NCBI RefSeq assembly: GCF_000022265.1
Contig: NC_011979.1
Span: forward strand, 60,001-92,000
From: Geotalea daltonii FRC-32
GTDB lineage: Bacteria > Desulfobacterota > Desulfuromonadia > Geobacterales > Geobacteraceae
Direction of reading: 5' to 3'
Length of the DNA stretch: 32,000 bases
This document shows positions 2,648 to 22,948 of the stretch, in pieces; position 1 is the first letter of the stretch, and every line of letters starts with the position of its first letter. A program made the translations under genes and the position numbers. The notes beneath the pieces are model-generated. The model had not been told where the DNA came from and made no database searches. It was given only the letters and a program-made list of their open reading frames with translations.

Positions 2648-5600
2648 ATGGGGAAAACTATTGTACGAAAAATCAGGGGGGTTAGCCTTAGAGCTAAGAT
2701 AGCCTTGATAGCAGGATTTACCATGCTGCTGAGCACCTTTATGTACCAAGGGTGGTATCGACCAGTGGTTGCCAGCGCTACAGAGATGGTCTCCAATGGG
2801 GTATTCAATGGCAGCGCCGGCTGGACATTCAGTACTGCCACTTACGACAGCACCACCACAAGGACAGCCAGCAGTGGTTCTGCAAAGCTATCCATCTCCG
2901 GCCGCAATACCGCGACTATCGGCACAGTGACGCAGGCTGTTTCCATTCCTGCCGGATCGACCATTGATGCGGTTTCTCTTTACGCGCAACTCACCACGAG
3001 CCACGAAACCACTGGTGACAACATCTCGGTCGACCTTCGCTATTCCGATGCAACGACCGTCAACATCCTCAGTTCCGGCGAACTTACCAACAGTTCATGG
3101 ACTGTGAGCAACGGCACAGGGGTTACTCTGGCCATGGATGTAAACCAGGTGATCATCACCATGAACACCAAATCAGGCAACAATTCTGCCTCCACGGCAT
3201 CGCTGTGGGTGGACGAGGTTACTGTTTCCTACACTGCAGGCCTTCCCTGTTCGCTAAATATCCCGACCTTGGCCGTATCCCCTTCATCGTCTCTGGTTGC
3301 TGCCGGGGCCAATATGCTCTATACAGCAACTGTCACAAACAATGACAGTGGTGCAGGTTGCAGTAATGTTACCTTTAACTTGGGGCTGATCAACACCAAC
3401 ACGTCCGATTTTACCTTAACGGCAATTTCTCCTGCGTCACTTTTGCTTCCAGCAGGTGCGCAGGGAACTGCCGAATTTACCGTAACCGCCCAGGCTACCG
3501 CTGCAGACGGGGCGGTTAATACATCCACCGTCAGCGTCAGCGCCTTCGGCCATACTGCCCCACCCAACGCCACAGTGCAAACAACAGTAAACAGCGGCGG
3601 ATCGCCGCTGCTGCACACAAGCGCCAATTTGGATCCAACAAACGCAAAGGGCTACGGTACGTGGGGGGCATCCTATGCCTGCAGCACCTGCCACAATAGA
3701 AATTCCACCAACGTCAAGCGGGTTCTGGAAACGATAGTTACTCCACTTGGCAGCAGGCCTGTGCTTTTCTCGCGCATGACAGCATCGATTGCCAATACCC
3801 AGGGGACTTTTGGTGATGATCTCAGGACCACCTATGCCAATGCTTCCCGCAACGTCTGCGAAGTATGTCACCACAAGACCCTGTATCACCAGTACAGTTC
3901 GACAAAGATTGCCAACCGGAGCACCGATCCCCATTATAACCGCCAGGATTGTGCTGCTTCCTGTCATCCACACAGTGCAGGCTTTAAAGGGTCCGGTTGC
4001 GACGGCTGCCACGGCAATCCACCTACCAGTACGGCAACACTGGTAACCAGCCCCGAGGCGACACTGGCCCTGGGCGCCCCCCCGACCAGCGGAGGTTCCC
4101 ATTCAGCACACGTGACAGGTGAAGGAATGAAGTGCACCACTTGCCACAGCGGCAATACCATGCCGTCGGTGAGCAAAACCATCCAGATTGGCTTCGATAT
4201 CAACAATAGCAACTGGCCCGGCTTTGCCGGACCAGTTGCCTTCGGCTCCTTTAGCGGACGTTCGCCCCTTGGCGGCACTCCTGCCTACAGCTTTGTTTCC
4301 AGCAAAACCGGCACCGTCGTCAATACCAGCGCCAGCTACCGTACCTCCTGCAATGTCTATTGCCACGGCCAGTGGACCGGCGCCAATGGCTCGATAAATC
4401 CATCGTGGATTGTTACCGACGGCAGCCAGTCGGCCTGCGGTACCTGTCACGCCGCTTCAGCGGCCAATGTTCCTGCAACCGGAAAGCATACTACCCACGC
4501 CAGCAGCAGTGCCGGCAACTATGGATTCTCCTGCACCAAGTGCCATCCGGGTGCAAGCAGCTTCAACCATGTCAACGGCAGCGTCCAGTGGCGGTTAAGC
4601 TCCTCCACCACCGGTCTCATCGGCTCTACCTCCAGTTATTCCCCGGCTGTTACCGGAGCCGATCCGGCAGGAATCAGCGGTAATACCAATAAATTAGCCC
4701 CCAGTGCCACCTACGGTACCTGCACCAACATCTACTGCCATTCCAATGCCCAGTCAAACACCGGTGCTGCTACACCTGTTGCCTATACATCACCAGGGTG
4801 GAACGATGCCTCCCTTGGCTGCGGTGGGTGCCACCTGGATATGGACACCAACGCCTCCGCCACCGGTGACCATGTGAAGCACGCCCAGACCTACGCCATT
4901 TCCTGTGTCACCTGCCATAACGGCTATACGGAAACCTCTGTTACGACCGCCACTCACGTAAACAAGGTGATCGAGATTTCTTTCAGCGGCAATGGCGCTG
5001 GCACCACTTATTCCCAGGCCAACCAGGCACCTGGCAACGGCTACGGCACCTGCAGTACCAGCTACTGCCACAGTACAGCCCAATCATCCACCGGTGGCGC
5101 GACTCCCACCTATCCGGGTACCGCACCAACCTGGGGCAGTTCGACAATGAATTGCGGCAGTTGCCATCTTAATATGGATAGCAATACATCCGCCCCCGGC
5201 GATCACGTCAAACACGCCCAAGGAACAGCCAACTTCACCTGTGCAACCTGTCATAACGGCTATACCGAAACATCAGTTACAACCTCTACCCATGTGAACA
5301 AGACCATAGAACTCTCCTTCAGTGGCACCTATGCCACCGGTACCGTTTATTCCCAGGGAAATGGCGCCGTCGGCAATGGCTTCGGCAACTGCACGGCAAG
5401 CAAATGCCACGGCCAGGGTGCACCGGTTTGGGGCGGTGGTTTGTACTCGGCAACCGTTCCTTGTGAAAACTGTCACGGCTCGGCCGCAACCAGTCCGTTC
5501 TACTCCACTGCGGCTACCGGTGCTGCGCCGACAAAGGTGACGGCTGAGAATGATAGCAAGGTTGGTGCCCATGTTCCTCATCTCACGGCACGAGCGGCAT

Positions 5601-7174
5601 ATACCGGCATCGTTGCTTGCGGGGATTGCCATACCGTTCCAGCTACGATTACTGCCGTAGGCCATATGAATGGTGTTTCAGCGCCGGTCTTTTCCGGCGA
5701 TGCGGTACTGAACACAGCTAATCCGACCTATGCATCTTCAACCTGCACCGCCACCTACTGCCACGGCGGAAAGATGATCAACGGCTCAAGCAACGGGTCG
5801 GATACCAGCCCGACCTGGACCAATACTGCCTATCTTACCGGTACCCCGTCAAATACGGGTGATTGTGCCATGTGCCATGGCTGCCCCCCTACCGGTTATA
5901 CGGGCAGTTCCCACAGCGGCACAGAAGCCTTGTCTGCATGTAACGGCTGCCATTCCCACGTCAATGCAGACGGCACATTTACTGCCGGCGCCAATCGTGC
6001 TCTACACATTAACGGTATAGTCGAGGCATCCGGCGGGGACTGTCTCGGTTGTCACGCCGGCCTCAAAAATAACACGGGCAACGCCGATATCGATAATAAT
6101 GGTGTTCGCATAATCACAGCAGAATTTTCCAGAACTTCACACCATGTCACCGGTGTAACCTTGACCGTACGCCACTGTGCCATGTGCCACATGGAGGGGG
6201 ATACCAGCGGCGTCAAGGGAACACTGCATGAAAATGGCCAGATTGACCTGCGTAATGTTGATACCAACACCGCTATTGTCTGGACCGGTTCTGAGCACGC
6301 CAATATGGATAATTTTTGTTTTGCCTGTCATGACAACAATGGGGTCAACAATACTACTGTTCAAAGCATTACGGGTGGAACGGCGACCAACCCCTTCAAC
6401 GACACCCTGAGAAACAGTTACGACCAGGTCACACGCCCTGGGGTAATCGATGTCAAAACGCAATTCACTACCACCAACTACTCCCATCACGCCGTGTCCG
6501 GCCAAAAGTATACATCGTCGACACCACTTTTCTCGGCCAGTCCAAACCGGTTCGTATCCACCTTCACCCCACTCGGAGGTAGCGTTTCCATCCGCGATAC
6601 CTCGACAATCCACTGCGGTGACTGCCACACCAGCGGTAAGTGGGCGACATCAGGCGGCATCGGCGCTCACGGTTCCACCAACGAATATATGCTGCAGACC
6701 GCTAGCGGCACGGACACAACCCATACATCGACCGATTATGTCTGTTTCAAATGCCATGTCGGATCTATCTACAACGATTTAGGTGGCAAAACCCTGGGCG
6801 GTACCGCTGCTCACATTACCGGCGGTAACGGGAGCGATTACACACACACTGCAGGGACAACCGGCCTGTCTGCCCGTACGAATGGCGATGGACACATCAC
6901 CGGCATGACCTGCTCAGGCTGCCACAACTGCGGCCAAACCGGATGGGGGGGCATTCACGGCGGCAATGCCAGCTACACGGACGGTAACAATACTTCTCAG
7001 CAGACGAGGCGGTTCATGCCTGGTATGGGAAACTCCAAGTACATCCCTGGGGGCTGGACATCGGGAACCGGTGCAACCTGCTATACGCTGAACAACTCAA
7101 GCTGGAGCACGTGCAATCAGCATCCTTCCGGCGGAAAATCTGTCACCAGAACGCCACGAGCAATCACCTATTGA
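2648..7174 (+). CDS. giant extracytoplasmic multiheme cytochrome c (26 heme-type motifs) with N-terminal signal anchor, CBM-like jelly-roll and Ig-like (CARDB/NEW3-like) domains
   Basis: The ORF is open from 2600. The ATG at 2648 is preferred because GAGG lies ~11 nt upstream and it gives MGKTIVRKIRGVSLRAKIALIAGFTMLL, a basic n-region followed by a hydrophobic helix. By direct count of the translation there are 20 CXXCH, 2 CX3CH (CAASCH, CNVYCH) and 4 CX4CH (CTNIYCH, CSTSYCH, CTASKCH, CTATYCH) motifs. This matches the Geobacter CxxxxCH...CXXCH domain family, which I recall as TIGR01904. The N-terminal segment NGVFNGSAGW...LWVDEVTVSY resembles a CBM4_9/galactose-binding-like module. Confidence 0.9.
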   Translation: MGKTIVRKIRGVSLRAKIALIAGFTMLLSTFMYQGWYRPVVASATEMVSNGVFNGSAGWTFSTATYDSTTTRTASSGSAKLSISGRNTATIGTVTQAVSIPAGSTIDAVSLYAQLTTSHETTGDNISVDLRYSDATTVNILSSGELTNSSWTVSNGTGVTLAMDVNQVIITMNTKSGNNSASTASLWVDEVTVSYTAGLPCSLNIPTLAVSPSSSLVAAGANMLYTATVTNNDSGAGCSNVTFNLGLINTNTSDFTLTAISPASLLLPAGAQGTAEFTVTAQATAADGAVNTSTVSVSAFGHTAPPNATVQTTVNSGGSPLLHTSANLDPTNAKGYGTWGASYACSTCHNRNSTNVKRVLETIVTPLGSRPVLFSRMTASIANTQGTFGDDLRTTYANASRNVCEVCHHKTLYHQYSSTKIANRSTDPHYNRQDCAASCHPHSAGFKGSGCDGCHGNPPTSTATLVTSPEATLALGAPPTSGGSHSAHVTGEGMKCTTCHSGNTMPSVSKTIQIGFDINNSNWPGFAGPVAFGSFSGRSPLGGTPAYSFVSSKTGTVVNTSASYRTSCNVYCHGQWTGANGSINPSWIVTDGSQSACGTCHAASAANVPATGKHTTHASSSAGNYGFSCTKCHPGASSFNHVNGSVQWRLSSSTTGLIGSTSSYSPAVTGADPAGISGNTNKLAPSATYGTCTNIYCHSNAQSNTGAATPVAYTSPGWNDASLGCGGCHLDMDTNASATGDHVKHAQTYAISCVTCHNGYTETSVTTATHVNKVIEISFSGNGAGTTYSQANQAPGNGYGTCSTSYCHSTAQSSTGGATPTYPGTAPTWGSSTMNCGSCHLNMDSNTSAPGDHVKHAQGTANFTCATCHNGYTETSVTTSTHVNKTIELSFSGTYATGTVYSQGNGAVGNGFGNCTASKCHGQGAPVWGGGLYSATVPCENCHGSAATSPFYSTAATGAAPTKVTAENDSKVGAHVPHLTARAAYTGIVACGDCHTVPATITAVGHMNGVSAPVFSGDAVLNTANPTYASSTCTATYCHGGKMINGSSNGSDTSPTWTNTAYLTGTPSNTGDCAMCHGCPPTGYTGSSHSGTEALSACNGCHSHVNADGTFTAGANRALHINGIVEASGGDCLGCHAGLKNNTGNADIDNNGVRIITAEFSRTSHHVTGVTLTVRHCAMCHMEGDTSGVKGTLHENGQIDLRNVDTNTAIVWTGSEHANMDNFCFACHDNNGVNNTTVQSITGGTATNPFNDTLRNSYDQVTRPGVIDVKTQFTTTNYSHHAVSGQKYTSSTPLFSASPNRFVSTFTPLGGSVSIRDTSTIHCGDCHTSGKWATSGGIGAHGSTNEYMLQTASGTDTTHTSTDYVCFKCHVGSIYNDLGGKTLGGTAAHITGGNGSDYTHTAGTTGLSARTNGDGHITGMTCSGCHNCGQTGWGGIHGGNASYTDGNNTSQQTRRFMPGMGNSKYIPGGWTSGTGATCYTLNNSSWSTCNQHPSGGKSVTRTPRAITY
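4718..5386 (+). repeat. in-frame tandem duplication (110 aa + 113 aa) inside the cytochrome gene; each copy is one CX4CH + 2 CXXCH unit
   Basis: Copy 1 (4718-5047) reads TCTNIYCHSNAQS...GCGGCHLDMDTNASATGDHVKHAQ...CVTCHNGYTETSVTTATHVNKVIEISFSG. Copy 2 (5048-5386) reads TCSTSYCHSTAQS...NCGSCHLNMDSNTSAPGDHVKHAQ...CATCHNGYTETSVTTSTHVNKTIELSFSG. The copies are roughly two-thirds identical by eye. Confidence 0.8.
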
Positions 7175-7194: not shown

Positions 7195-7231
7195 GAAAGG
7201 GGCCAGGCAACCGGCTCCTTTCTTTTATTTT
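7195..7231 (+). terminator. Rho-independent terminator after the cytochrome gene
   Basis: GAAAGGGGCC-aggcaacc-GGCTCCTTTC forms a 10-bp stem with one G.U pair and an 8-nt loop. It is followed by TTTTATTTT and starts 21 nt after the stop codon. Confidence 0.7.
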
Positions 7232-7288
7232 CCTGTTTACTACGAGCGGAGATGCAGGTAAACGAAAGGGTGATGCACACAACCCTAA

Positions 7289-7446
7289 CAGGTTGTTGAA
7301 AAACTATTGCGGACCCGCGGGGCCTAAAGAGTCGCTCTGCTGCGTTGCCGCTCGCTCGGAGACTCAACGTACAGAGGGTACGCCTCGTCCCCTCGCTCGC
7401 TTGAGCCTTGCATAGCGACCTCCTCATGACGTTTTTCAACAACCCG
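7289..7446. repeat. MITE-like / REP-like palindromic element or structured RNA
   Basis: Perfect 14-bp terminal inverted repeat GGTTGTTGAAAAAC (7291-7304) / GTTTTTCAACAACC (7431-7444), extendable to 16 bp with one mismatch. It is flanked by direct CTAA copies (7285-7288 and 7447-7450). The 126-nt GC-rich interior has further nested pairings (GAGTCGCT..AGCGACCTC; CGTAC-agagg-GTACG) and the direct repeat CTCGCTCG. No credible ORF lies inside. Confidence 0.5.
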
Positions 7447-7466
7447 CTAAATCACTTTTTAAATTT

Positions 7467-8660
7467 ATGATGACACGCATCCGTTTACTGTTCCCTCTGG
7501 TCGTTACCTCGCCACTTGCTTTTGGTGTATTCCTCATCATTCCGCTGGTGGTGGTTCTCCAGCGCATCAGCGGGGGGAGTTCCATCTCCCCGATAATCCT
7601 GCTGATCAACAACCTGCTCTGTCTGGCCTGGCTCCTTGCACGTCTGTTCATTGATGTGAGACGATTCCGTTCCGGGAAACGATATGGTTCAGAAGCGCTG
7701 TTCCGAGGGCGGGCCGCAACCGTACCCTTTGGCCGGGAACAGCTACGCGAGCATCTCGTGCGAACAGGCTATATCCTCGATGAATCCGGGCGCTACGGAG
7801 AGCGGCCTGACCGGGGGTATTGGGGAAGGCTCCTCCTGCTGACAGGGCTGTCATTCACCCTTCTGGTAGGGACCTACGACAACGTTCGTCAATTCTCCGG
7901 CACCATTCTGCTTGGGGTCGGCGGGCCGCTCAAGCTCTTCGAAGCCTCCTCCTACGGGATTCTCACCAAGGGTGCACTCTCCTCGTTCGATGAACTGCCG
8001 GTCAAGCTTCAGATAACCCGTCAGATCCTTCCTGATGGCAAGTATCCTAAAGGCGCTACCGACATCGTCATATGCGACCCGGACGGAAAGGAACTGCAGC
8101 GGGCGACCATCAGGCCTGGCTCTCCCCTTAGCATCGGCGCCTTTGAGATCCACATGGCCCGTTTTTTGTTCGATGCCTGGCTGGTCGTCACCACCACATC
8201 GAACCACATCGTCTTCACCAATTTCGTCAAACTCCTTCCCCTGGACAAACCGAAAGAGGGATATACATTCCATGGTGAAATCGATGATGATCATTTCGAG
8301 AAGGTCAAGGGAGAGGTATGGCTCCGGCCACAGGACAAAGCCATGAAAGTGGCAGTGGACTACAAAGGATCTCGTATAGTGGATACCGAACTATTCCTCT
8401 GGGGAGAGAACAAAAAGGAATCGGCCGGCTATGTTGCCAAGCTCGAAGGACTGGGGCAATGGAGCGAGATCCATGTAACCCGCCGCCGCCACAAGAGTGC
8501 GCTGTTTGCCGGTGTGTGGACTGCCCTGCTAGGATTGTTGATACGTCTGAGCTGGAGGCCTCGACGGGTCTGGATTACAGAAACGCCCGACGGCATATCT
8601 TTGCGCACTACGGATGCGAAAGTACTTAAAGCCATCAACGACTCAACCGTTGACATATAA
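7467..8660 (+). CDS. ResB-like (cytochrome c biogenesis Ccs1/ResB family-like) membrane protein, divergent paralog 1
   Basis: It has ResB-like topology: two N-terminal TM helices; a third TM after a basic stretch (RPDRGYWGRLLLLTGLSFTLLVG), where true ResB has ..LLFHLSFLLLLAGG..; a ~220-aa soluble domain; and a C-terminal TM (ALFAGVWTALLGLLIRLSW). The family assignment is by eye only. There is no obvious RBS. Confidence 0.5.
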   Translation: MMTRIRLLFPLVVTSPLAFGVFLIIPLVVVLQRISGGSSISPIILLINNLLCLAWLLARLFIDVRRFRSGKRYGSEALFRGRAATVPFGREQLREHLVRTGYILDESGRYGERPDRGYWGRLLLLTGLSFTLLVGTYDNVRQFSGTILLGVGGPLKLFEASSYGILTKGALSSFDELPVKLQITRQILPDGKYPKGATDIVICDPDGKELQRATIRPGSPLSIGAFEIHMARFLFDAWLVVTTTSNHIVFTNFVKLLPLDKPKEGYTFHGEIDDDHFEKVKGEVWLRPQDKAMKVAVDYKGSRIVDTELFLWGENKKESAGYVAKLEGLGQWSEIHVTRRRHKSALFAGVWTALLGLLIRLSWRPRRVWITETPDGISLRTTDAKVLKAINDSTVDI

Positions 8661-8698: not shown

Positions 8699-9769
8699 AT
8701 GACATTCAGATGCCTTGTTTCTTTCTTACTATTCATCACTATGGCCCTTGCCGCGTGCAGGCAGGAGACGGAGCCTCCCCTACAGAAAGGAGAGGCAGTG
8801 CGCCTTCTGGTAAGGCAAAACGGCAAGTTCGGCTATATTGACCAAAGTGGAAAACTGGCGATCCCGGCCCGATTCGAGAACGCGTCACTTTTCTCCGAAG
8901 GGCTGGCAGCAGTGAGGATTGGTGGCAAGGATGGCTATATCGACACATCCGGCAAAATTGTCATCGAACCCCGGTTCAAGGCGGCCTCTATCTTTAACGA
9001 AGGGCTGGCGGCAGTTCTGGTTGGTGACAGGTGGGGGTATATCAACAAGGCCGGCAAGATGGTTATCCCCTCAAGCATTGTTTCGACCTTTGCTTTTACC
9101 GAGGGTTTGGCGGTAGTCGTGGCCGTCACCAAAGATGGTTACAAGGCCGGGTACATGGATGCAACGGGCAAGATGATCATTCAGCCGCTTTACGAAGATG
9201 CAAGGTTCTTTTCAGAGGGTTTGGCGCCAGTGAAGAAGGGAAAAAAATTCGGCTTTATCAATCGTTCCGGGACCATGGTGATCCAGCCGATGTTTGATGA
9301 TGCTACCCCCTTCCGCGAAGGGTTGGCTGCCGTGAAGATCAATGGCAAGTACGGCCAGTGGGGCTTCATCGATACCAATGGCGTCTGGGTAGTAGAGGCA
9401 AAATATAAAAACTGCCTCCGGTTCAAGGAGGGCGTGGCCGCAGTAGAGCAAGAAGGCACCTGGCGGTTTATTGACCGGCGAGGCAAGGATGCCGTGCCGC
9501 TGACAATGGACGGACCATCGCTCTTTTCAGAGGGGCTTGCGCCGGTCAAAATAAGGGGGAAAGTCGGTTACATCGACCGCCAAGGACGAGAGATCATCCC
9601 TCCCCGTTTCGAGGCTGCAACGATTTTTATCAAAGGGTTGGCGGCTGTGCGCCAAGGGGACCTGTGCGGATACATCGACAAGAAAGGGAATCTGGTCGTT
9701 CCTCCCACCTATGAGTGGTACCAGCCAATTATCGACCAAGTGGTCACCTTCGCGGCAGAAATTGAGTAA
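8699..9769 (+). CDS. WG-repeat (KWG-type) lipoprotein
   Basis: Signal peptide with lipobox LAAC (MTFRCLVSFLLFITMALAAC). About ten repeats follow the pattern GK.GYID..GK.VI.P.F..A..FSEGLA.V, as in the WG-containing-repeat family. Confidence 0.85.
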   Translation: MTFRCLVSFLLFITMALAACRQETEPPLQKGEAVRLLVRQNGKFGYIDQSGKLAIPARFENASLFSEGLAAVRIGGKDGYIDTSGKIVIEPRFKAASIFNEGLAAVLVGDRWGYINKAGKMVIPSSIVSTFAFTEGLAVVVAVTKDGYKAGYMDATGKMIIQPLYEDARFFSEGLAPVKKGKKFGFINRSGTMVIQPMFDDATPFREGLAAVKINGKYGQWGFIDTNGVWVVEAKYKNCLRFKEGVAAVEQEGTWRFIDRRGKDAVPLTMDGPSLFSEGLAPVKIRGKVGYIDRQGREIIPPRFEAATIFIKGLAAVRQGDLCGYIDKKGNLVVPPTYEWYQPIIDQVVTFAAEIE

Positions 9770-9881: not shown

Positions 9882-10715
9882 GTGGCACCTCTTGAATCAA
9901 TCTTTGTCTGGATATCCCTCTGTGGTTACGGAATCATCAGTAGCCTGTACATTTATGCCTTCGTCTTCAGGAAAGAAAACATCCTCCAGAAGATCATCTA
10001 CCCCATTGCTGCGGTATTTCTGATCCATACAGCCTCCATCATCGCCAGGTATGTTGCTGTCGGGAACCTGCCGTGGGCAGGGGATTACGAATCGGCAACG
10101 GCAGGTTCCTGGTTCGTGGTGCTGTTTACCATCATCTTTATATGGAAACATCGCAGCCTCAGTGCCATCGGCGTCGGCACTATTCCGTTCTCCCTGCTCC
10201 TGTTCGGTTTCGGTGTCATGCGTTCTCCCCAACTCATTCCCATGTCGGTTTCTTTGAAGTCTTTCTGGTTGGGAATCCATGTTTTATTTGCCTGGCTGGC
10301 TTTTGGCGCTTTTGCCATCGCCTTCGGCCTGGGAATTATCTACCTTCTTAAGGAGAAGAACCCCCGGAAGGAGTTTTACGCAAAATTCCCCGATCTGCCG
10401 ATGCTTGATGAATTGATGTTCAAGTATGTGGTCTTCGGCTTCATAACCGATGCCGTGATGATCCCGTCCGGAGCTATCTGGGCCAAGGATCTGTGGGGGA
10501 ACTATTGGTCATGGGACCCGGTTGAGACTTGGTCATTGGTGACATGGCTGATATATGGTTGCGCCATTCACCTGCGTCTCACCATGGGGTGGCGAGGCCG
10601 CCGACTGGCCTGGATCGTTATTTGGGCATTGGCTGGAATGGTCATTACCTTTTTCGGCATCAATTTCTTTGTCACATCGAGCCTGCACCTCTTCCGTGCG
10701 ATGCAGGGGCAGTAG
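9882..10715 (+). CDS. ccsA: cytochrome c-type biogenesis protein CcsA/ResC (System II heme-handling subunit)
   Basis: GTG start with GGAGG ~9 nt upstream. The WWD motif WGNYWSWDPVETW lies at 10494-10532. Flanking conserved histidines are present (GIHVLFAW upstream, CAIHLR downstream). The protein is polytopic. Confidence 0.9.
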   Translation: MAPLESIFVWISLCGYGIISSLYIYAFVFRKENILQKIIYPIAAVFLIHTASIIARYVAVGNLPWAGDYESATAGSWFVVLFTIIFIWKHRSLSAIGVGTIPFSLLLFGFGVMRSPQLIPMSVSLKSFWLGIHVLFAWLAFGAFAIAFGLGIIYLLKEKNPRKEFYAKFPDLPMLDELMFKYVVFGFITDAVMIPSGAIWAKDLWGNYWSWDPVETWSLVTWLIYGCAIHLRLTMGWRGRRLAWIVIWALAGMVITFFGINFFVTSSLHLFRAMQGQ

Positions 10716-15660: not shown

Positions 15661-16890
15661 TTGCTCCTGCGCATACTGAAAAGCTCGTTTCTCAAACGGC
15701 CAAAGGCGGTATTGTTCCTGTTGCTCTCCATAACCATGGGCGCTGCCGTGGCAACAGCCTTCCTTGGTATTTACGGAGAAGTATCCCATAAGATGGCCCT
15801 TGAGTTACGCAGCTACGGCGCCAACATCCTCGTGGAACCCTCCGTTACCGATGATGGGGGGGAACTGGTCGAGGCCGACCTGAAAAATATCAAAACCGTT
15901 TTCTGGAAGTACAACATTACAGGCTTCGCACCATACCTCTTCGGTATCGTCGAGCTGGAAGCCGCCGGCAGAAAAGAACGCGGCGTTGTCAGCGGTACCT
16001 GGTTCGCCAAGGAACTGCAGGTGGAAGGGGCAGAGCCGTCAACCCAGGGGGTACGGCAGATTGCTCCCTGGTGGGAAATAGCCGGTGAATGGCCTCAAGC
16101 TGCAGACGAAGCAATAGTCGGCGTCTCCCTGGCAAAAAGATTCGCCTTGAACCCGGGGAGCGAGATCATTGCCCGAAAGGACGGCAGAAGCCGGCGGTTC
16201 AAAATCTCAGGGATCGTGACCACTGGCGGTTACGAAGAGGAGCAGCTCTTTGCCCCGCTGGCGACAGTGCAGGGACTGCTGGCAAAGGAAGGGCGCATCT
16301 CCAGAGTTCTGGTCAGTGCCCTGACGGTGCCCATGGATGAGTTCGGCTCCAGGGATCCGGCGACCATGAACAAGCTTGAATACGAAAAATGGTACTGCAC
16401 CGCCTACGTCACCTCGGTTGCCAAGAATGTGGAGGAGGTAATGACCGGGAGCAGGGCCAAGCCGATCTGGCAGATAGCCAGTGCCGAAGGTTCCCTGCTT
16501 AAAAAATTCAATCTGATCATCATCCTTCTGACGTCCCTGGCGCTGGCGGCATCGGCCATTGCCGTCTCCACCAGCCTCATGGCATCGATGGCCGAAAGGC
16601 AAACGGAGGTTGCGCTGATGAAAACCCTTGGCGCTGACCGCTTCCAGGTAATCGCCATTTTTATCGGCGAGATTCTGATCATTTCCGTGATTGGGGGGCT
16701 GCTCGGCTACCTGCTGGGGGATCAGCTGGCAGAATTGATCAGCCGTGTGGTGTTCAACTCCAAGATCAAATCGCCTCTATGGCTTTTTCCCACTGCCATC
16801 CTGTCTGCGTTTGCCGTTGCCGTGGCCGGTAGCGTAGCTCCGCTGCAAAGGGCGTTGCTCATTAAGCCGGTGCAGGTAATAAAGGGGTGA
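15661..16890 (+). CDS. ABC transporter permease, FtsX/MacB type, with large periplasmic domain
   Basis: TTG start. The N-terminus LLRILKSSFLKRPKAVLFLLLSITMGAAV is followed by a ~230-aa periplasmic domain, then three C-terminal TMs with the FtsX signature region (MKTLGADRFQVIAIFIGEILIISVIGGLLGYLLG). Confidence 0.85.
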   Translation: MLLRILKSSFLKRPKAVLFLLLSITMGAAVATAFLGIYGEVSHKMALELRSYGANILVEPSVTDDGGELVEADLKNIKTVFWKYNITGFAPYLFGIVELEAAGRKERGVVSGTWFAKELQVEGAEPSTQGVRQIAPWWEIAGEWPQAADEAIVGVSLAKRFALNPGSEIIARKDGRSRRFKISGIVTTGGYEEEQLFAPLATVQGLLAKEGRISRVLVSALTVPMDEFGSRDPATMNKLEYEKWYCTAYVTSVAKNVEEVMTGSRAKPIWQIASAEGSLLKKFNLIIILLTSLALAASAIAVSTSLMASMAERQTEVALMKTLGADRFQVIAIFIGEILIISVIGGLLGYLLGDQLAELISRVVFNSKIKSPLWLFPTAILSAFAVAVAGSVAPLQRALLIKPVQVIKG

Positions 16891-16891: not shown

Positions 16892-18055
16892 ATGAGCAGG
16901 AAACGCTGGTTTTTTCATGTGGTAACCCGCTCCCTTGCCCATCGCAAGGGTGGCACGCTGCTGCTGTTGCTTGTTCTGGCCATGGCATCGAGTCTGGTTA
17001 CCGCTCTGGGGATTGTTTCCTTCTCCATGGAGAAAAAGATCGCCGAGGAGATCAGGCGGTATGGCGCCAACCTGGTGGTTGTGGGAGACAGTGCCGGAAT
17101 GGAAGTGGGAAGTGGTGGCATGAATTTCGGTATGATAGCTGAACCGGCTTATGTGGCTCAGGGACAGGTGGAACAAGCCCTATTGCAGGATCGTACCGTA
17201 CGGGCGGACTATTCCCCAAGCCTGCGGGGAGCTTTCAATCTTAAAGGCAGAAATGTTGCTGCGGATGGCGTTGAGTTTTCAACGGTACGCAGGCTCTTCC
17301 CCTGGTGGCGGGTGAGTGGCGGGTGGCCGCAGGCACACGAATGCCTTATCGGGAATGACATTGCCCTGCGTCATTCCGTAAAACCGGGTGATGAGCTGAC
17401 TTTGGCGGGTTCGGCCGGAAATCTGGTTGTCAGGGTTGCGGGAATTGTCTCCAGCGGCGGCGAAGAGGATGGGCTGGTTTTTGTTAATCTGCAGGCCCTG
17501 CAGAAGGCGCTGGGAGTGCCCGGGCAGGTAACGGCAGTCAGAGTTTTGGCTTCGGCGTCGGGTGAGGATCTCCGGCGGTTTGCGGGCAACCTGCAGAAAC
17601 GTCTGAATGGGGCTAAGGTGAAAGAGGTTCGCCAGGTTGCCAGGACCAGTGAGTCGTTGCTGAAAAAGGTTCAACTGTTGATGCTGCTGGTGACGGCGGT
17701 GGTGCTGACCGCCTGCGGCGGCAGTGTTGCCGGCACCATGGGCAGCAGTGTGCTGGAACGCGGCAAGGAGATCGGCCTGCTCAAGGCAATCGGCGCCTCC
17801 AGGAAAGAGGTCCTGCTGCTTTTTGGGGCAGAGTCTGCCTTCTTGGGTCTTGTTGGGGGTCTGGCAGGATATGTTGCCGGCTATGCCATTGCCATCCTGG
17901 TTACCGAAACGGTCTTTTCCGTGGCTGCCGACTTTTTGCCTGCCCTTTTCCCGGTTGCCCTGGCGGCCAGCTGTTTCTTGGCCCTCCTTGGCAGCACGGG
18001 ATCCATGATCGCGGTTTACCGTCTCGATCCGGTTTGCAGCCTGAGGGGGGAATAG
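16892..18055 (+). CDS. ABC transporter permease, FtsX/MacB type (second subunit)
   Basis: Starts 1 nt after the previous stop, with an AAGGGG RBS. It has the same architecture as the first permease (LKAIGASRKEVLLLFGAESAFLGLVGGLAGYVAG). Confidence 0.85.
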   Translation: MSRKRWFFHVVTRSLAHRKGGTLLLLLVLAMASSLVTALGIVSFSMEKKIAEEIRRYGANLVVVGDSAGMEVGSGGMNFGMIAEPAYVAQGQVEQALLQDRTVRADYSPSLRGAFNLKGRNVAADGVEFSTVRRLFPWWRVSGGWPQAHECLIGNDIALRHSVKPGDELTLAGSAGNLVVRVAGIVSSGGEEDGLVFVNLQALQKALGVPGQVTAVRVLASASGEDLRRFAGNLQKRLNGAKVKEVRQVARTSESLLKKVQLLMLLVTAVVLTACGGSVAGTMGSSVLERGKEIGLLKAIGASRKEVLLLFGAESAFLGLVGGLAGYVAGYAIAILVTETVFSVAADFLPALFPVALAASCFLALLGSTGSMIAVYRLDPVCSLRGE

Positions 18056-18057
18056 GG

Positions 18058-18753
18058 GTGACATCCGTGAAAACTGAGTCTTCGATCATCAAGACCGTTG
18101 GATTGACCAGAAGCTACGGCGAAATTTGTGCCCTGGCGCCTCTGGATTTGCAGGTAACCGAGGGGGAATGGCTGACGATCATGGGGCATTCAGGGTCCGG
18201 TAAAAGTACTCTGCTGAATCTTTTGGGGGGTCTGGACCGCCCAACAGCCGGCACTCTGCTGGTTGACGGGGAGAACCTCCTTTCCCTCAGTGAAGACCAG
18301 TTGGCCAGGTTCAGACGGGAATCCGTCGGCATCATCTTTCAACAGCACCACCTGATTCCCTATCTCACCTCATTGGAAAACGTGATGATGGCCCAGTATT
18401 TTCACAGCATTCCCGATGCTGTTGAAGCCAGTCTGGCACTGGAAAAAGTGGGGCTGGGCAAGAGGCTGGCCAACCGGCCGAGAGAACTGTCCGGGGGGGA
18501 GCAGCAACGGGTCTGCATTGCCAGGGCTATCATTAACAATCCGAAGCTGCTCCTCGGCGACGAGCTGACCGGCAATCTCGACCATAAAAGTACCCATTTG
18601 GTTATGGAATTGCTGAAAGAACTTCATGAGACGGAACGGTTTACCCTGGTGCTGGTTACACACAATCAGGAGGTGGCCGGCTGGGGACAGCGGACCATCT
18701 TCATGGATGACGGCACAGTGGTAAAGGATGTGCGGCAGGGGAGGAGTAACTGA
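18058..18753 (+). CDS. ABC transporter ATP-binding protein (MacB/LolD-like)
   Basis: Walker A GHSGSGKST, Q-loop FQQHHL, signature LSGGEQQRV and Walker B LLLGDELTGNLD are present. The GTG at 18058 is preferred over the overlapping ATG at 18034; the start is uncertain by up to 33 nt. Confidence 0.9.
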   Translation: MTSVKTESSIIKTVGLTRSYGEICALAPLDLQVTEGEWLTIMGHSGSGKSTLLNLLGGLDRPTAGTLLVDGENLLSLSEDQLARFRRESVGIIFQQHHLIPYLTSLENVMMAQYFHSIPDAVEASLALEKVGLGKRLANRPRELSGGEQQRVCIARAIINNPKLLLGDELTGNLDHKSTHLVMELLKELHETERFTLVLVTHNQEVAGWGQRTIFMDDGTVVKDVRQGRSN

Positions 18754-20096
18754 TGCCGCTCCTTGTCAAGGGCTTGACCTTGCTGATTCTCTGGGGTGTC
18801 CTGGTAGTGGGCCTGACGCGGGCCTTTGCCGCGAGAAAGAGTGCGCTGACGGCCGGTTCCGTGCTTGGGCTGATTACCGGCACTGTTGCCGGTTTCCTGC
18901 TCTTCGGTTCTTTCACCGGCGAACTACCCTTTGCCATCATTAAATCTCTGGTTGCCGTTGCCTTTATTTCCCTTTTTATCGTAGCCGCTTTTGCCTGGCA
19001 CAAGGCTCCTGCACCTGCGATAACGGTGTTCTCTCCTTCTCTGTCCGACCATCCTGCTGTCACCGCAATGGCAGCCTTTCTCACCGCTACGGTTTTTGCC
19101 ATCCTGGCTGTCTTTCGTCTATCCAACAGCGGCGATAATGCCACAGTGCTTGCAGTAGGCTTCATTCTTCTGGCAATGGTGGAACTCTGGCTGGTGGTTT
19201 ACCGGCTGGAGCCGCTCCTGCCATCGGTCCTCAAAATGCCCAGGGGGGGGCTACCCCTTCTGGCCGTCTCCCTGTTCCTGTTTATCGCTTCCTCTTCCCC
19301 CCGGCTCGACCTTTTTTCGCCCCTCAGCATGAAGGTGATGAAGCTTATCCATGACTTCGTCCACCAGTTTTTTGAATCCATGCTCATTCCGGACCATCCC
19401 TTTTTCCGTACCGATGTCTGGGACTATATAGGAATGCTTTTCAGCAACGGTGTCGGTTTCTGGGGGGGGCTTATCATCTGGTTTATTCCAGCGGCATTGA
19501 TAGCAATTGCCGTATTCCGCCAGCCTCTCCCTTCGGTGGCCCATGTGCGACAGGCCGCCACACGCCGCAAGTTGATCGCGGGCCATCTCCGCGAACGGCG
19601 CTGTCTGCTCTTTTTTCCGTTTTTTGCAACTATATTGATGGCAGTTGCAGTATATGAGAGTGGCCACCCTTCTGTTGAATACTGGGACCCGAAGCCTATT
19701 GCCGTAAAAGCAGATGGTGCTGGGACGATTCACATCCCTGTCAAGGATGGTGAAACAGACCTTAAAGATGGGAAACTTCACAAATATATCTTCCTGCAGG
19801 GTGCAAAGAAGGTACGCTTCTTCGTCCTTTACCGTTCAGATGAACTGACCGTCGTCCTCGATGCCTGCTCCATCTGCCAGCCGGAAGGGTACGGACAGAG
19901 CGAAGGTACAGTCATCTGTTATTATTGCAAGACCTTGATCCCGCTGGAGACGGTGGGCAAGCCGGGAGGCTGTAATCCGGTACCAGTCTCATTCACCGCC
20001 GACGCTGGTGGTGTGCATCTTTCTGCCGTGAGTCTTATCAACACCTGGAATGAACAGGTTCAATCGGCGAAAAAAGTCCCAGGGGGGCCAGAATGA
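18753..20096 (+). CDS. polytopic membrane protein with C-terminal DUF2318-type Cys-rich domain (COG4393-like)
   Basis: The start overlaps the ATPase stop (TGATG). The N-terminus has about 8 TM helices. The C-terminal soluble domain carries LDACSICQPEGYGQSEGTVICYYCKTLIPLETVGKPGGCNPVP (CxxC...CxxC...C), characteristic of DUF2318. Confidence 0.7.
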   Translation: MPLLVKGLTLLILWGVLVVGLTRAFAARKSALTAGSVLGLITGTVAGFLLFGSFTGELPFAIIKSLVAVAFISLFIVAAFAWHKAPAPAITVFSPSLSDHPAVTAMAAFLTATVFAILAVFRLSNSGDNATVLAVGFILLAMVELWLVVYRLEPLLPSVLKMPRGGLPLLAVSLFLFIASSSPRLDLFSPLSMKVMKLIHDFVHQFFESMLIPDHPFFRTDVWDYIGMLFSNGVGFWGGLIIWFIPAALIAIAVFRQPLPSVAHVRQAATRRKLIAGHLRERRCLLFFPFFATILMAVAVYESGHPSVEYWDPKPIAVKADGAGTIHIPVKDGETDLKDGKLHKYIFLQGAKKVRFFVLYRSDELTVVLDACSICQPEGYGQSEGTVICYYCKTLIPLETVGKPGGCNPVPVSFTADAGGVHLSAVSLINTWNEQVQSAKKVPGGPE

Positions 20097-21331
20097 GGCG
20101 CCTGCTCCGAGGTTTTCACAGTATCATCGCTTCACGTGCGGTAACTCCCATCATTCTTGGATGTTTCGCTCTCATCTACATTATCATCGCCTTTTACACT
20201 GACGAGACCTTGGTCGCTCTTATGGCCCTTGTCAGGAGTAACAGCCCCCTTATCCTGCTCCTATCCTGCATACCGGTAAATCTCCTTGCCATTCTTTGCC
20301 GCGAAACAGCCCAGTTCAGCGACAGAAGGCATGCAGTAAGGCTTTCAGCGAAAGGATTACCCGTCGGGACTTATCAGGAAAGGGTATTTCTCGGCACAGT
20401 TCAGACAGGGCTGTTGGAGAAAAAAATTGAACAATCAGGCTACCATTATCGAATAAAAGGAGACTCTTGCGCTGCATGGAAGGGAATAAGCATTTTCCCC
20501 GCTCGATTTCTGTTTCTCATGGGCAGCTTTTGTCTCTTTGCGGGCATATTGGTCAGCCTGACCACCAAGGTTTCTCTGCGGGATGTCGTTATAGAGGGGG
20601 AACCCTTGCCCGAGGCAGTCGGGGTGAGGGGGCGAGTAGAGCAAATCACTCTTCGTCAACATAATGGCATCATTTTGTCCCATAGCCTCGACATGGACAT
20701 CACCTTAGGGGAGGGCGATGAAGCGAGCGTGAGAAAATTCGGCGTTTACCCCCCTGGCCGGATTAATGGTATCTTTTTCTATCCCCGTTACCTCGGCCTT
20801 GCCCCACTTATCGAATTTACTCCCCCTGAATCCGGACAGGTTTTTTCCAGCTATATCAAACTAATGATCTACCCTCCGGGAAAAGAGGATGGCGTCCAGA
20901 TTCCCCGGTCTCCTTACAGGATATCCTTTACCATCATCGAGCCCATGACCGGGGCAGAGCCGTATATCACAGGCAAGTTCAATCTGCGCTTCAAGGTCTT
21001 GAAAGGCAACGATCAGGTTTCGGAAGGAACGCTGCCACTGGGGGGGACCGTGAGCAGGGGAGGGTACACACTTTCTTTTCCTGATGCAAAAAAACTTGTT
21101 GCTGTAGATTTTGTCAAGGATCCTGGCCTGCCGCTGCTGTGGATCGCCGGCCTTCTCTTCCTGGGAGCAATTGTTGCTTATATTCCCATCAGAATGTTTG
21201 CTCCACGCAGGGAGATTATCTTTATTCAACGTAATGGATCAACAGAGGTCTTTTCTCGGGCAGAAGGACGAGCAGCAAAACACCGCGGCATCCTCCACAA
21301 TATGCTCGATCACCTCTGCCAAAGTCAGTGA
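20093..21331 (+). CDS. ResB-like membrane protein, divergent paralog 2 (lacks the TM3 histidine)
   Basis: ATGA overlap with the DUF2318 gene. The layout is ResB-like: LLRGFHSIIASRAVTPIILGCFALIYII, then SPLILLLSCIPVNLLAILCRE, then TM3 ARFLFLMGSFCLFAGILVS, then a VIEGEPL soluble domain and a C-terminal KDPGLPLLWIAGLLFLGAIVAYIP. The assignment is by eye. Confidence 0.55.
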   Translation: MRRLLRGFHSIIASRAVTPIILGCFALIYIIIAFYTDETLVALMALVRSNSPLILLLSCIPVNLLAILCRETAQFSDRRHAVRLSAKGLPVGTYQERVFLGTVQTGLLEKKIEQSGYHYRIKGDSCAAWKGISIFPARFLFLMGSFCLFAGILVSLTTKVSLRDVVIEGEPLPEAVGVRGRVEQITLRQHNGIILSHSLDMDITLGEGDEASVRKFGVYPPGRINGIFFYPRYLGLAPLIEFTPPESGQVFSSYIKLMIYPPGKEDGVQIPRSPYRISFTIIEPMTGAEPYITGKFNLRFKVLKGNDQVSEGTLPLGGTVSRGGYTLSFPDAKKLVAVDFVKDPGLPLLWIAGLLFLGAIVAYIPIRMFAPRREIIFIQRNGSTEVFSRAEGRAAKHRGILHNMLDHLCQSQ

Positions 21332-21481
21332 TTTCACATTTTTTCAGCAACCAGTATTCCTGATGGCCGGCAATTTTTCTCTGTGAAGTTGCACAAGATG
21401 CTAAAATCTTGCTTGTAAAAAATCAGGCTGAATAACCATGCAGGGGAGTGGAAATTGCAAAACAGAGGGTGGAGACAGTCC

Positions 21482-22948
21482 ATGGAAGCAAGCAGAGCAA
21501 AGAAGATCCTTTTTGTCACCCCTCCGTACCACTGTGGCGTGGTGGAGGTCGCCGGGCGGTGGATACCGCTGAACTTCGTCTATCTTGCCGGTGTTGCCCG
21601 AGAAGCCGGTCTGGATGCGGAGATATACGATGCCATGACCAAGGATCATGGGTATCCTGAGATCGAACAGCGTTTGCAGGCGTCTACCTTCGATGTGGTG
21701 GCCACGACAGCTATTACTTCCACCATCAACGACGCTCTCAAGACTCTGCAACTGGCGAAGCAGATCAATCCCAATGCCGTCAGCATCATCGGCGGAGTCC
21801 ATCCAACCTTCTGCTATGAGGAAGTTTTCAATACAACCGATGCAGTGGATTACATCATCTGCGGCGAAGGGGAGACAACCCTTAAAGCCCTGCTGATGGC
21901 ACTGGAAAAGGGAACTGACGTGGCCGAGGTTCCGGGGGTTGCCTTCAAAAGGGATGGCCGCGTCATCAAAACCGCCAAGCGCTGCTTTCGGGAGAATCTC
22001 GATGATCTGCCAGCAGCCTGGGACCTCCTTGACTGGTCTGATTACAAGTACTTCGTCATCCCCAATTCCCGTTTAGGCGCCATCAGCACCTCCAGGGGCT
22101 GTGATCACGATTGCATCTTCTGCTCACAGCAGAAGTTCTGGGAGCAGTCGTGGCGGGGTCGGGATCCGCAGAAGGTGGCAGACGAAATCCAGTACCTCTT
22201 CGAGATCTATGGGGTAAATGTCTTCCTCATTGCCGACGAGTACCCGACAAAAGACCGGGAGCGGTGGGAAGCCCTGCTTGATATGGTCATCGCAAAGGAC
22301 CTGCCCATTTACCTTCTTATGGAGACAAGGGTTCCGGATATCATCCGTGACAGGGAAATCCTCTGGAAGTACCGAAAGGCCGGGGTGGTTCACATCTATA
22401 TCGGCATCGAAGCCACCGATCAGGAAACCCTCGATTTCATCAAAAAAGAGCTTGATGTGGACCAGTCAAAGCTGGCCCTTGATCTGATCCACGAGCATGG
22501 CATAATCACCGAGACCTCTTTTGTTCTCGGCTTTCCCGATGAAACAAAAAAGAGTATCGAAAAAACGTTGAAGCTGGCCCAGTACTATAATCCCGACAAT
22601 GCCCATTTCCTTGCCATAACGCCCTGGCCCTATGCCGACATGTTCAATGACGTCAAGGACTACATCAAGGTTCATGACTACGCCAAATACAACCTCATCG
22701 ATCCCATCATCGAGCCGAAACGGATGAGCCTTCTCCAGGTGGACGTGGCCATTGTCGACTGCTATCGACGTTTTTACATGAAGAAGCTACCTGAGGTCTT
22801 CAACATGAAGGACCCGTTTAAGCGCGATTACTTGATGAAGGCGATGAAGCTGATCATGAACAGCTCCTTCATAATCAAAAAGCTCGGTAAGGGTACGCTG
22901 GGCAAGGTGCCGGCAATGATCGAAGAAATGATGGCAAAGATGTCCTGA
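21482..22948 (+). CDS. B12-binding-domain radical SAM protein (class B rSAM) 2
   Basis: The ATG at 21482 has GGTGGAG ~8 nt upstream (the tracked ORF starts at a TTG at 21455). The B12-binding-type N-terminus reads KKILFVTPP...FDVVATTAIT...IIGGVHPTF. The CX3CX2C motif GCDHDCIFC lies at 22100-22123. Confidence 0.9.
   Translation: MEASRAKKILFVTPPYHCGVVEVAGRWIPLNFVYLAGVAREAGLDAEIYDAMTKDHGYPEIEQRLQASTFDVVATTAITSTINDALKTLQLAKQINPNAVSIIGGVHPTFCYEEVFNTTDAVDYIICGEGETTLKALLMALEKGTDVAEVPGVAFKRDGRVIKTAKRCFRENLDDLPAAWDLLDWSDYKYFVIPNSRLGAISTSRGCDHDCIFCSQQKFWEQSWRGRDPQKVADEIQYLFEIYGVNVFLIADEYPTKDRERWEALLDMVIAKDLPIYLLMETRVPDIIRDREILWKYRKAGVVHIYIGIEATDQETLDFIKKELDVDQSKLALDLIHEHGIITETSFVLGFPDETKKSIEKTLKLAQYYNPDNAHFLAITPWPYADMFNDVKDYIKVHDYAKYNLIDPIIEPKRMSLLQVDVAIVDCYRRFYMKKLPEVFNMKDPFKRDYLMKAMKLIMNSSFIIKKLGKGTLGKVPAMIEEMMAKMS

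Follow-up and report, generated by a model that had tools for sequence, protein, structure and literature searches.

Radical-SAM and DUF2318/ABC genes beside System II haem-handling genes: a recurrent gene neighbourhood in Geotalea daltonii FRC-32 and distant bacteria

In the accepted view, CcsA, ResB and a thiol-reducing pair suffice for haem attachment by System II, and in Wolinella the dedicated haem lyases NrfI (for CXXCK) and CcsA1 (for CX15CH) serve non-standard sites. To our knowledge, no radical-SAM (radical S-adenosylmethionine) enzyme and no ABC (ATP-binding cassette)/DUF2318 unit appears in any current scheme of cytochrome c assembly. Here we describe an array of 14 consecutive genes of Geotalea daltonii FRC-32 (formerly Geobacter), Geob_0053 to Geob_0066 (GenBank proteins ACM18430 to ACM18443), in which System II genes stand beside genes of both these kinds. 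It lies in a 32,000-nucleotide stretch of contig NC_011979.1 (positions 60,001 to 92,000; the window, to which all coordinates refer). An exact-sequence look-up of ten window proteins found database entries for nine; the Geob_0060 tag was read from its record and the remaining tags were inferred from consecutive accessions; gene identities were assigned by Pfam and NCBIfam profile searches of the window proteins.

Four ResB/ResC pairs were described in G. sulfurreducens and G. metallireducens by Aklujkar et al. in 2009 (PMC2700814), and that such pairs serve neighbouring giant cytochromes was proposed there (section 12 and Table S5); the idea of dedicated pairs is already published and is not new. 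Cluster #3 of Table S5 (G. metallireducens) combines 26-34-haem cytochromes with spermidine-synthase-related, acyl-protein synthetase and radical-SAM genes (PMC2700814). DUF2318 was reported to map almost always to Fet clusters, and FetA of C. jejuni carries it with the motif CxxC-x13-CxxC-x14/15-C (PMC6083913). The FetA gene cluster also encodes two FtsX permeases, an ATPase and two thioredoxins (PMC6083913, PMC10783030); FetABCD is needed for growth of C. jejuni under iron limitation, and FetABCDEF was proposed to pass reducing power to the periplasm (PMC10783030). A preliminary description of the window had asked if the cluster was already annotated: each of the 14 has its own GenBank annotation. 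Nothing describing the module was returned by literature searches on Geob_0053-0066, on DUF2318/ResB with radical SAM, on DUF2318 or BchE-like with cytochrome, and on GSU genes, and curated family libraries held no description of the combination.

The most conserved member was Geob_0058 (12118–13461; rSAM1), a radical-SAM enzyme with a cobalamin domain (PF02310 + PF04055), which was 63–99% identical across phyla and 75–78% in Nitrospirota. A search for two invariant peptides of rSAM1 in 185,579 species, each represented by one genome, gave 75 loci. For neighbour counts, all open reading frames (ORFs) of the loci were clustered, family hidden Markov models were built and a re-scan was made; total counts refer to 78 loci, and a well-flanked set comprised the 37 loci in which rSAM1 had 5 kb or more of sequence on both sides. 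The loci of the scan came from Geotalea, Geomonas and Oryzomonas, many Nitrospirota/Thermodesulfovibrionia, Anaeromyxobacter and other Myxococcota, a Deferribacteres metagenome-assembled genome (MAG) and Actinomycetota-like ‘Geothermocultor’ MAGs. Within the well-flanked set rSAM1 was accompanied by a small membrane protein (the Geob_0060 family, hereafter the small protein) at 32/37 loci, a ResB-family protein at 29/37, CcsA or a divergent CcsA-like protein at 28/37, DUF2318 at 21/37, an ABC ATPase at about 20/37, a BchE-like enzyme at 19/37 and a fusion of MFS (major facilitator superfamily) and spermidine-synthase domains at 10/37. Each of the four phylum-level groups (Desulfuromonadota, Nitrospirota, Myxococcota and Actinomycetota-like) had CcsA/ResB proteins beside rSAM1.

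The order of these genes differed from group to group: f12 (a family of the clustering), ResB-like, ccsA, resB, rSAM1 paralogue, rSAM1, small, ABC, DUF2318, ResB-like-3 and two BchE-like genes in Geomonas; resB, ccsA, MFS/spermidine synthase, rSAM1 and small in Anaeromyxobacter; resB, ccsA, rSAM1, BchE-like and, further on, small in ‘Geothermocultor’; and ABC, DUF2318, ResB-like, SRPBCC, rSAM1, small, CcsA-like, short ResB-like, thioredoxin, BchE-like, DUF2318 and ResB-like in Nitrospirota. Since gene order and strand varied between phyla, the co-occurrence is not merely inherited synteny. The chance of a ccsA gene in a random 20-kb window was roughly 2%, an estimate assuming 1–4 copies per genome. 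The coupling of System II genes to radical-SAM and ABC/DUF2318 genes, which the preliminary description had read from this one locus, was thus borne out as conserved, rearranged synteny in four phylum-level groups, and this is strong evidence that the haem-handling genes act jointly with the radical-SAM enzymes, the small protein and the DUF2318/ABC unit.

Most of the combination is found again in at least four bacterial phyla, and so it is probably a single undescribed machine and not a private helper of the giant cytochrome encoded at the head of the array. The reading that we prefer, with a probability of roughly 0.5, is that three units (ccsA-resB-rSAM1; the small-protein gene to the ResB-like-3 gene; the BchE-like gene) form one conserved module, an accessory haem-handling system derived from System II that has a periplasmic reductant supply of its own. 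It is supported by translational coupling at seven junctions, canonical CcsA/ResB motifs and the multi-phylum co-occurrence. In such a module, CcsA and ResB would carry reduced haem over the inner membrane and attach it to apocytochromes in the periplasm, as is established for their families. A Fet-type unit, composed of the ABC transporter, the Cys-rich DUF2318 protein, a His-less ResB homologue and the two-histidine small protein, would stand in for the CcdA/ResA reductant pathway, either supplying reducing power or holding the apoprotein at the periplasmic face. More speculatively, the two cytoplasmic cobalamin radical-SAM enzymes might act before export, a tetrapyrrole being our preferred guess for their substrate. 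In Geobacteraceae the large multihaem cytochrome upstream of the module would be a plausible client.

The window pair carried the canonical motifs of a System II synthase. Geob_0056 (CcsA, ResC-type; 9882–10715; PF01578, E = 3.5e-38) carries a canonical WWD motif (WGNYWSWDPVETW, residues 205–217) that was invariant in 15 orthologues, and H133, H230 and H269 were invariant in the orthologue alignment; these would be two WWD-flanking histidines and one membrane histidine. It scored 172.6 bits against the NCBIfam equivalog TIGR03144, under the cut-off of 187.6, a near miss that is consistent with a diverged CcsA paralogue. Geob_0057 (ResB/CcsB, 465 aa; 10724–12121; PF05140, E = 1.2e-28) starts 8 nt past ccsA, matches its profile over the full length (positions 2–485 of 486) and has an invariant membrane FH motif (H160). 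As the preliminary description had said, no thiol-disulfide oxidoreductase was found: the System II thiol-reducing partners (CcdA/DsbD, ResA/CcsX) were missing among the 21 window proteins scanned, and CcdA may be encoded elsewhere in the genome.

Its count of three ResB-family genes also held. ResB-like protein 1 (Geob_0054, 397 aa; 7467–8660) matched PF05140 in its C-terminal part only (35.1 bits vs a cut-off of 24.6) and ResB by hhalign (98.5%). ResB-like protein 3 (Geob_0065, 412 aa; 20093–21331) had no Pfam or NCBIfam match and was confirmed as a ResB homologue by profile-profile comparison (hhalign 99.8%, E = 1.6e-28, 311 columns). Because its family has no conserved histidine, it is unlikely to ligate haem as ResB does. 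Profile-profile tests of the DUF2318 membrane domain against CcsA and of f12 against ResB were negative. A divergent CcsA-like protein of 242 aa was seen in Nitrospirota (L005:11744–12472; homologues in ~19 Nitrospirota loci). It is homologous to CcsA by hhalign (99.8%), has YWLWTAKELW at the WWD motif, with Thr in place of Asp, and retains one invariant His only; its gene always has a small-protein copy before it and a short (~238 aa) ResB-like gene after it.

The ABC/DUF2318 unit resembled the Fet accessory module. Geob_0061 (15661–16890) and Geob_0062 (16892–18055) are FtsX/MacB-type ABC permeases 1 and 2 (both PF12704 + PF02687), the former with a FetB/FetC-like domain set; Geob_0063 (18058–18753) is a LolD/MacB/FtsE-like and FetD-like ABC ATPase (PF00005, E = 5e-34; 216.9 bits against TIGR02211, below its cut-off); and Geob_0064 (18753–20096), polytopic by hydropathy, ends in a DUF2318/FtrD-like domain (PF10080, E = 1.4e-23; FetA-like) with the Cys motif CSIC-x13-CYYC-x14-C at residues 372–407. 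The junctions between the four genes are 1, 2 and -1 nt. By domain content, Geob_0061–0064 is a predicted Fet-type module in a different context. The DUF2318 gene was followed by a gene of the ResB-like-3 family in 31/43 cases. FetE/FetF periplasmic thioredoxins were not found in the window.

In 13/13 Nitrospirota-type relatives, a membrane-anchored TlpA/ResA-like thioredoxin had an in-frame TGA at its first redox position (..FFASW-U-KRC..), and gene callers split it into ORFs of 65 aa and 99 aa (L005:13398–13922, +; L022, L027, L028, L029, L032, L042, L043, L045, L049, L053, L071 and L073). It is predicted to be a selenocysteine oxidoreductase. This protein would provide the thiol-redox partner absent from the window, and a FetABCDE-like set would thereby be complete.

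The small protein (Geob_0060, 135 aa; 15247–15654) is the constant partner of rSAM1, and in the window its gene is the first of the tight ABC/DUF2318 unit. NNYFHD is an invariant motif of the protein and KH nearly so; it belongs to no Pfam family, and was unnamed or ‘hypothetical’ in the best 120 of 777 homologues; the family formed 228 clusters at 50% identity in 1.84 billion representatives. Its AlphaFold model (three long helices, pLDDT 76) had no significant fold match in the PDB, and profile-profile tests against CcsA, ResB and DUF2318 were negative; two distant members matched CopD weakly (E = 0.03 and 0.0015). Rare fusions occurred in the representative library (P0394, P0402 and P0496), the partners at the C-terminus being PKD/NHL/TSP3 repeats (1083 aa), SurA_N + PPIase (peptidyl-prolyl isomerase; 434 aa) and a PsbP/DcrB-like domain (296 aa). 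Because these fusions attach periplasmic domains there, they place the predicted C-terminal end of the small protein outside the cytoplasm.

Both radical-SAM proteins were of class B, with CxxxCxxC and an N-terminal B12-binding-type domain. The cluster motif of rSAM1 is C168-x3-C172-x2-C175 (CPHRCTFC); that of Geob_0066 (488 aa from the GenBank start; 21482–22948, the ORF opening at 21455; PF02310 + PF04055) is CDHDCIFC at residue 216. A homologue search with rSAM1 gave 2082 matches at E ≤ 1e-20 among 8000 candidates scored, and rSAM1 reached no NCBIfam family at its cut-off. Geob_0066 matched TIGR02026 (BchE) over nearly its full length with 432.1 bits (E = 3e-129), below the cut-off of 481.35, and all other curated families with at most 142 bits; this putative enzyme is classed here as BchE-like only. 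Similarity of both proteins to solved class B enzymes was at class level only (E = 1e-8 to 1e-15, ~17% identity). The predicted model of rSAM1 (pLDDT 62) matched the folds of AprD4, MgmA, TsrM, CysS and OxsB, which confirms no more than the enzyme class.

For a tetrapyrrole substrate, we guess from the BchE-like score (432 vs ≤142 bits elsewhere), from the divergent Nitrospirota CcsA-like protein, which with Thr for Asp and one His looks as if it might handle a different ligand, and from the SRPBCC ligand-binding neighbour of rSAM1 in Nitrospirota. A bolder version, in which the radical-SAM enzymes would alter a tetrapyrrole or other cofactor, CcsA/ResB would export it, and the Fet-type unit with a (seleno)thioredoxin would replace CcdA/ResA in a new branch of cytochrome biogenesis, is speculative and rather unlikely as it stands.

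Several Geomonas-type clusters had a second rSAM1 paralogue (~42% identity, same C-terminal RGFP.AH motif) between resB and rSAM1 (L014:6750–8066; Geomonas/Geobacter loci L009, L011, L020, L072 and L075), and many had two tandem BchE-like genes. A search with the Geomonas paralogue, aimed at kinship with GSU2888, a radical-SAM gene of the published cluster, had among its best 120 matches no protein of G. sulfurreducens or G. metallireducens. A cassette of the RiPP type (ribosomally synthesized and post-translationally modified peptide) was considered and rejected, the clustering having given no conserved precursor-peptide family; short ORFs by the Nitrospirota radical-SAM genes were a membrane peptide and the N-terminal half of the selenocysteine thioredoxin. 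An SRPBCC ligand-binding protein adjoined rSAM1 in Nitrospirota.

A number of observations weigh against the haem-handling module. In a distant clade of rSAM1-like enzymes (43–45% identity with the Geomonas paralogue), part of the core persists with no CcsA/ResB nearby, and therefore the core may act on something more general than haem. The Thermincola potens locus (L082, 8365–21338) has rSAM1-like, LuxE (acyl-protein synthetase), BchE-like and small-protein genes and no CcsA/ResB; genes for a 4140-aa Big_5/RCC1 surface protein and for envelope polysaccharides adjoin this core. A Coriobacteriia genome has three rSAM1-like genes and the small protein with neither BchE-like nor CcsA/ResB genes. 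At 8/37 well-flanked loci no haem-handling gene lay within 10 kb, and no haem-biosynthesis genes were found nearby. We know of no modified c-haem reported from Geobacter cytochromes. The nearest structure to both radical-SAM proteins in a sequence search of the PDB was a protein methyltransferase (QCMT/MgmA, 9CCB, the MCR (methyl-coenzyme M reductase) glutamine methyltransferase), weakly matched. FetM and FetP are missing from the window, and the putative orthology of the ABC/DUF2318 unit to Campylobacter Fet is drawn only from the domain set and the Cys motif.

Such loci give room to a serious rival, which we nevertheless hold to be fairly unlikely: a membrane lipid or other envelope component would be made or modified by the rSAM1-small-BchE-like core, and CcsA/ResB would be frequent neighbours only through a shared role in building the extracytoplasmic electron-transfer apparatus. 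It would account for the Thermincola locus, where LtaS, Wzy and glycosyltransferases accompany LuxE and the giant surface protein in the absence of CcsA, and for the ArnT/PMT-like, carbamoyltransferase, SGNH-like and MFS/spermidine-synthase-like neighbours in several loci. Cluster #3 of G. metallireducens likewise combines ResB/ResC pairs with glycosyltransferases, radical-SAM genes and an acyl-protein synthetase; the ABC unit resembles LolCDE/MacB/DevA, and lower-scoring matches of the radical-SAM proteins included the lipid-modifying B12-dependent enzymes HpnR and HpnJ and the ladderane enzyme. The BchE-like enzyme, however, scored three-fold higher against BchE than against any lipid enzyme. 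The ATGA overlap of resB and rSAM1 also speaks against a lipid or envelope product, as do the contiguous ResB-CcsA-rSAM1-BchE-like genes of Actinomycetota-like genomes, the contiguous rSAM1-small-CcsA-like-short ResB-like genes of Nitrospirota, and the fact that the partner of DUF2318 is itself a ResB homologue.

The next rival is the proposal of the preliminary description, that the array is a private pathway for maturation, modification or export of the adjacent cytochrome, on account of CX3CH/CX4CH sites and in the manner of NrfI/CcsA1. This cytochrome, Geob_0053 (1508 aa; 2648–7174), has 20 CXXCH, 2 CX3CH and 4 CX4CH motifs, the total of 26 agreeing with its GenBank name ‘cytochrome c, 26 heme-binding sites’. 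It begins with a membrane anchor or signal and includes a haem-free Thr/Ser-rich stretch of ~340 aa. It belongs to the known CxxxxCH/CxxCH family TIGR01904 (94.5 bits vs a cut-off of 27, 5 stretches; also PF09698/PF14522), and each of its four CX4CH sites is followed by CXXCH sites, as expected of TIGR01904/PF09698 members. In favour of the proposal, a large multihaem cytochrome gene lay directly 5′ on the same strand in 12/12 ccsA-holding Geobacteraceae loci (window included), CX4CH-rich giants stood beside the core in one Nitrospiraceae (L048) and one Anaeromyxobacteraceae (L052) genome, and dedicated ResB/ResC pairs had been put forward in 2009 (PMC2700814).

The particulars did not favour dedication. 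Relatives of the array have a different cytochrome gene in this place, or no cytochrome gene. An intrinsic-terminator-like hairpin with U-run (7195–7232, +; hairpin 7195–7222, GC-rich, -17.6 kcal/mol, then UUUUAUUUU), starting 21 nt past the stop codon of Geob_0053, and a 292-nt gap cut the cytochrome gene off from the rest. CX3/4CH motifs occurred in 4/12 of the Geobacteraceae cytochromes (window, G. toluenoxydans, Geotalea SG265 and one Geobacter MAG) and were lacking in 8/12, those of Geomonas and Oryzomonas having 9–10 plain CXXCH motifs. A synteny comparison over all 78 loci found any multihaem ORF in 23 and one with CX3/4CH in 10, leaving 55 with no multihaem ORF. The WWD and His positions of the window CcsA are fully canonical, not specialised. 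No Geobacter sensu stricto was returned by the species-level rSAM1-peptide scan, which points to its absence there; this genus presumably carries many TIGR01904 cytochromes, ‘GSu’ in the family name referring, we assume, to G. sulfurreducens. Taken together, the counts make a cytochrome client in Geobacteraceae plausible, and specificity of the module for CX3CH/CX4CH sites is not supported. Functional coupling of the System II, radical-SAM and ABC/DUF2318 genes and, facultatively, of the aminopropyltransferase-like fusion survives from the proposal, but dedication to that cytochrome does not, and a private pathway appears doubtful.

A role in iron or haem acquisition, in which the Fet-like unit takes up or reduces iron, ResB/CcsA-like proteins move haem and the radical-SAM enzymes degrade or remodel a tetrapyrrole anaerobically, is very improbable. 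The requirement for FetABCD under iron limitation in C. jejuni (PMC10783030) and the near-constant linkage of DUF2318 to Fet clusters (PMC6083913) would suit it, and anaerobic haem degradation is radical-SAM chemistry (PMC10404700). Against this, FTR1 (FetM) and P19 (FetP) domains were found neither in the window nor in two Pfam-annotated relatives (L004 and L005), the known haem-degrading radical-SAM enzymes are of class C (HemN-like) and not of the cobalamin-domain type, and CcsA/ResB are known only as exporters and lyases.

Least credible of all is the view that unrelated operons lie side by side and that the tight junctions are ordinary packing within units: five gaps of 82–292 nt and the terminator-like site would agree with it, as would the absence of WG-repeat and MFS/spermidine-synthase genes in Geotalea sp. 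SG265, the closest other species, but rSAM1, small, CcsA/ResB, DUF2318/ABC and BchE-like genes stay together through rearrangement in four phylum-level groups, and two start/stop overlaps (resB/rSAM1 and DUF2318/ResB-like-3) cross functional boundaries.

As to layout, the 14 consecutive plus-strand genes claimed for the array were all found, as were both its boundaries. On the left, outside the system, tRNA-Ser(CGA) lies at 2159–2246 (+; ARAGORN; Rfam RF00005, 52.7 bits), the sole match in an Rfam scan of the whole window. On the right, an 18-bp perfect hairpin (22991–23034, -33.9 kcal/mol) stands between convergent gene ends; it was not called by a consensus terminator scan, its T-run being weak. 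A sigma-70-like promoter match (TTTATA-17-TATAAT, 10/12; 2563–2591, +) was found 5′ of the cytochrome gene by consensus scan only. The seven quoted junctions were exact to the nucleotide: ccsA-resB 8 nt, resB/rSAM1 a 4-nt ATGA overlap, small-permease 1 6 nt, permease 1-permease 2 1 nt, permease 2-ATPase 2 nt, ATPase/DUF2318 a 1-nt overlap and DUF2318/ResB-like-3 a 4-nt ATGA overlap. Tight packing from ccsA onward was correct for these junctions but not throughout, since gaps of 83, 82 and 123 nt also occur there. A single 14-gene operon was rejected on the terminator-like site and the five gaps (292 nt after the cytochrome gene, then 112, 83, 82 and 123 nt). The array would be a string of about six transcription units, the tight ones being ccsA-resB-rSAM1 and small-FtsX-FtsX-ATPase-DUF2318-ResB-like-3.

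Besides the cytochrome gene, two further genes of the array were variable. The fusion Geob_0059 (13545–15164) meets the profile NF037959 (107.7 bits vs a cut-off of 40), with PF07690 N-terminal and PF01564 C-terminal. The preliminary description had listed this aminopropyltransferase-like fusion as a member and placed it after both radical-SAM genes; it is inserted between rSAM1 and small, and with 10/37 well-flanked loci (13/78 in total, Anaeromyxobacter among them) it recurs as a facultative neighbour. The WG-repeat protein Geob_0055 (8699–9769; PF14903, E = 3e-101, 8 repeats; lipoprotein-type N-terminus, ..LAAC) was also encoded in an Oryzomonas MAG locus (L019) and a Geobacteraceae MAG locus (L018). 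Geotalea sp. SG265, which lacks both genes, keeps everything else in order. In the G. toluenoxydans JCM 15764 draft (L007, 11381–17900), MFS/spermidine synthase, small, permease 1 and DUF2318 were each in two pieces, and in a newer assembly those proteins are intact; the splits probably reflect frameshifts of sequencing and do not mark pseudogenes.

Between the genes for the cytochrome and ResB-like-1 lies a 164-nt element (7286–7449) with 19-nt inverted repeats (TAACAGGTTGTTGAAAAAC / GTTTTTCAACAACCCGCTA) at its ends. It folds with -64.7 kcal/mol (z = -4.1) and had no Rfam match, and the G. toluenoxydans locus lacks its repeat core; a small mobile element or a regulatory one could be at hand. 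The genes flanking the array are unrelated: 5′, a response-regulator/PAS/GGDEF protein and a TadA-like deaminase; 3′, a C92 amidase, a phosphatase, a 980-aa protein and a DUF2339 protein. The 980-aa ORF (25339–28281, -) matched no Pfam family and lies between the tyrosine-phosphatase-like gene and that of the DUF2339 membrane protein.

That such a gene set is kept together across four phylum-level groups suggests that, in organisms living by multihaem cytochromes, a step has been missed or a specialised product is made. The module would be a second, iron-uptake-independent context for Fet accessory proteins, and if the radical-SAM/System II/Fet-type branch is real, the enigmatic FetABCDEF proteins would gain a general function. 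It would also help in asking why several ResB/ResC pairs are kept by Geobacter-type bacteria, a question dating from 2009. G. daltonii is cultured, and the proposals are directly testable.

Compared with System II (CcsA/ResC + CcsB/ResB), the window shares the WWD/His CcsA and a full-length ResB 8 nt on, and with the Geobacter ResB/ResC pairs (PMC2700814) it shares a giant multihaem cytochrome upstream. It differs from both in two more ResB homologues, one of which has no conserved His, in a resB translationally coupled to a cobalamin radical-SAM gene and in having no CcdA/ResA in the window. Spermidine-synthase-related and radical-SAM genes also occur in cluster #3, but the 2009 account does not describe the rSAM1/small core, the DUF2318/ABC unit or conservation across several phyla. 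Like NrfI/CcsA1 of Wolinella, the array has an additional System II-type component next to a cytochrome whose haem-binding motifs are unusual; unlike them, its CcsA is canonical, the neighbouring cytochrome type differs among species, and the conserved extras are radical-SAM and Fet-type proteins rather than a specialised lyase paralogue.

With BchE, the anaerobic Mg-protoporphyrin IX monomethyl ester cyclase, Geob_0066 has in common the cobalamin-domain radical-SAM architecture and a near full-length match, but the host is not a phototroph and the context is cytochrome assembly, not (bacterio)chlorophyll synthesis. The N-terminal cobalamin-type domain and radical-SAM barrel are those of QCMT/MgmA, AprD4, TsrM, TokK, CysS and OxsB, whereas the invariant C-terminal region of rSAM1 (..RGFPMSHITSWMIQYPQGRAF..) is without counterpart in QCMT/MgmA and the other class B enzymes. 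The Fet clusters of C. jejuni and E. coli are matched by the DUF2318 motif, two FtsX permeases and one ATPase and, in Nitrospirota relatives, by a thioredoxin partner. In contrast, the gene order is BCD-A here and A-BCD there, the partners here are a ResB homologue, the small two-histidine protein and radical-SAM enzymes, and the thioredoxin of the relatives is a predicted selenoprotein.

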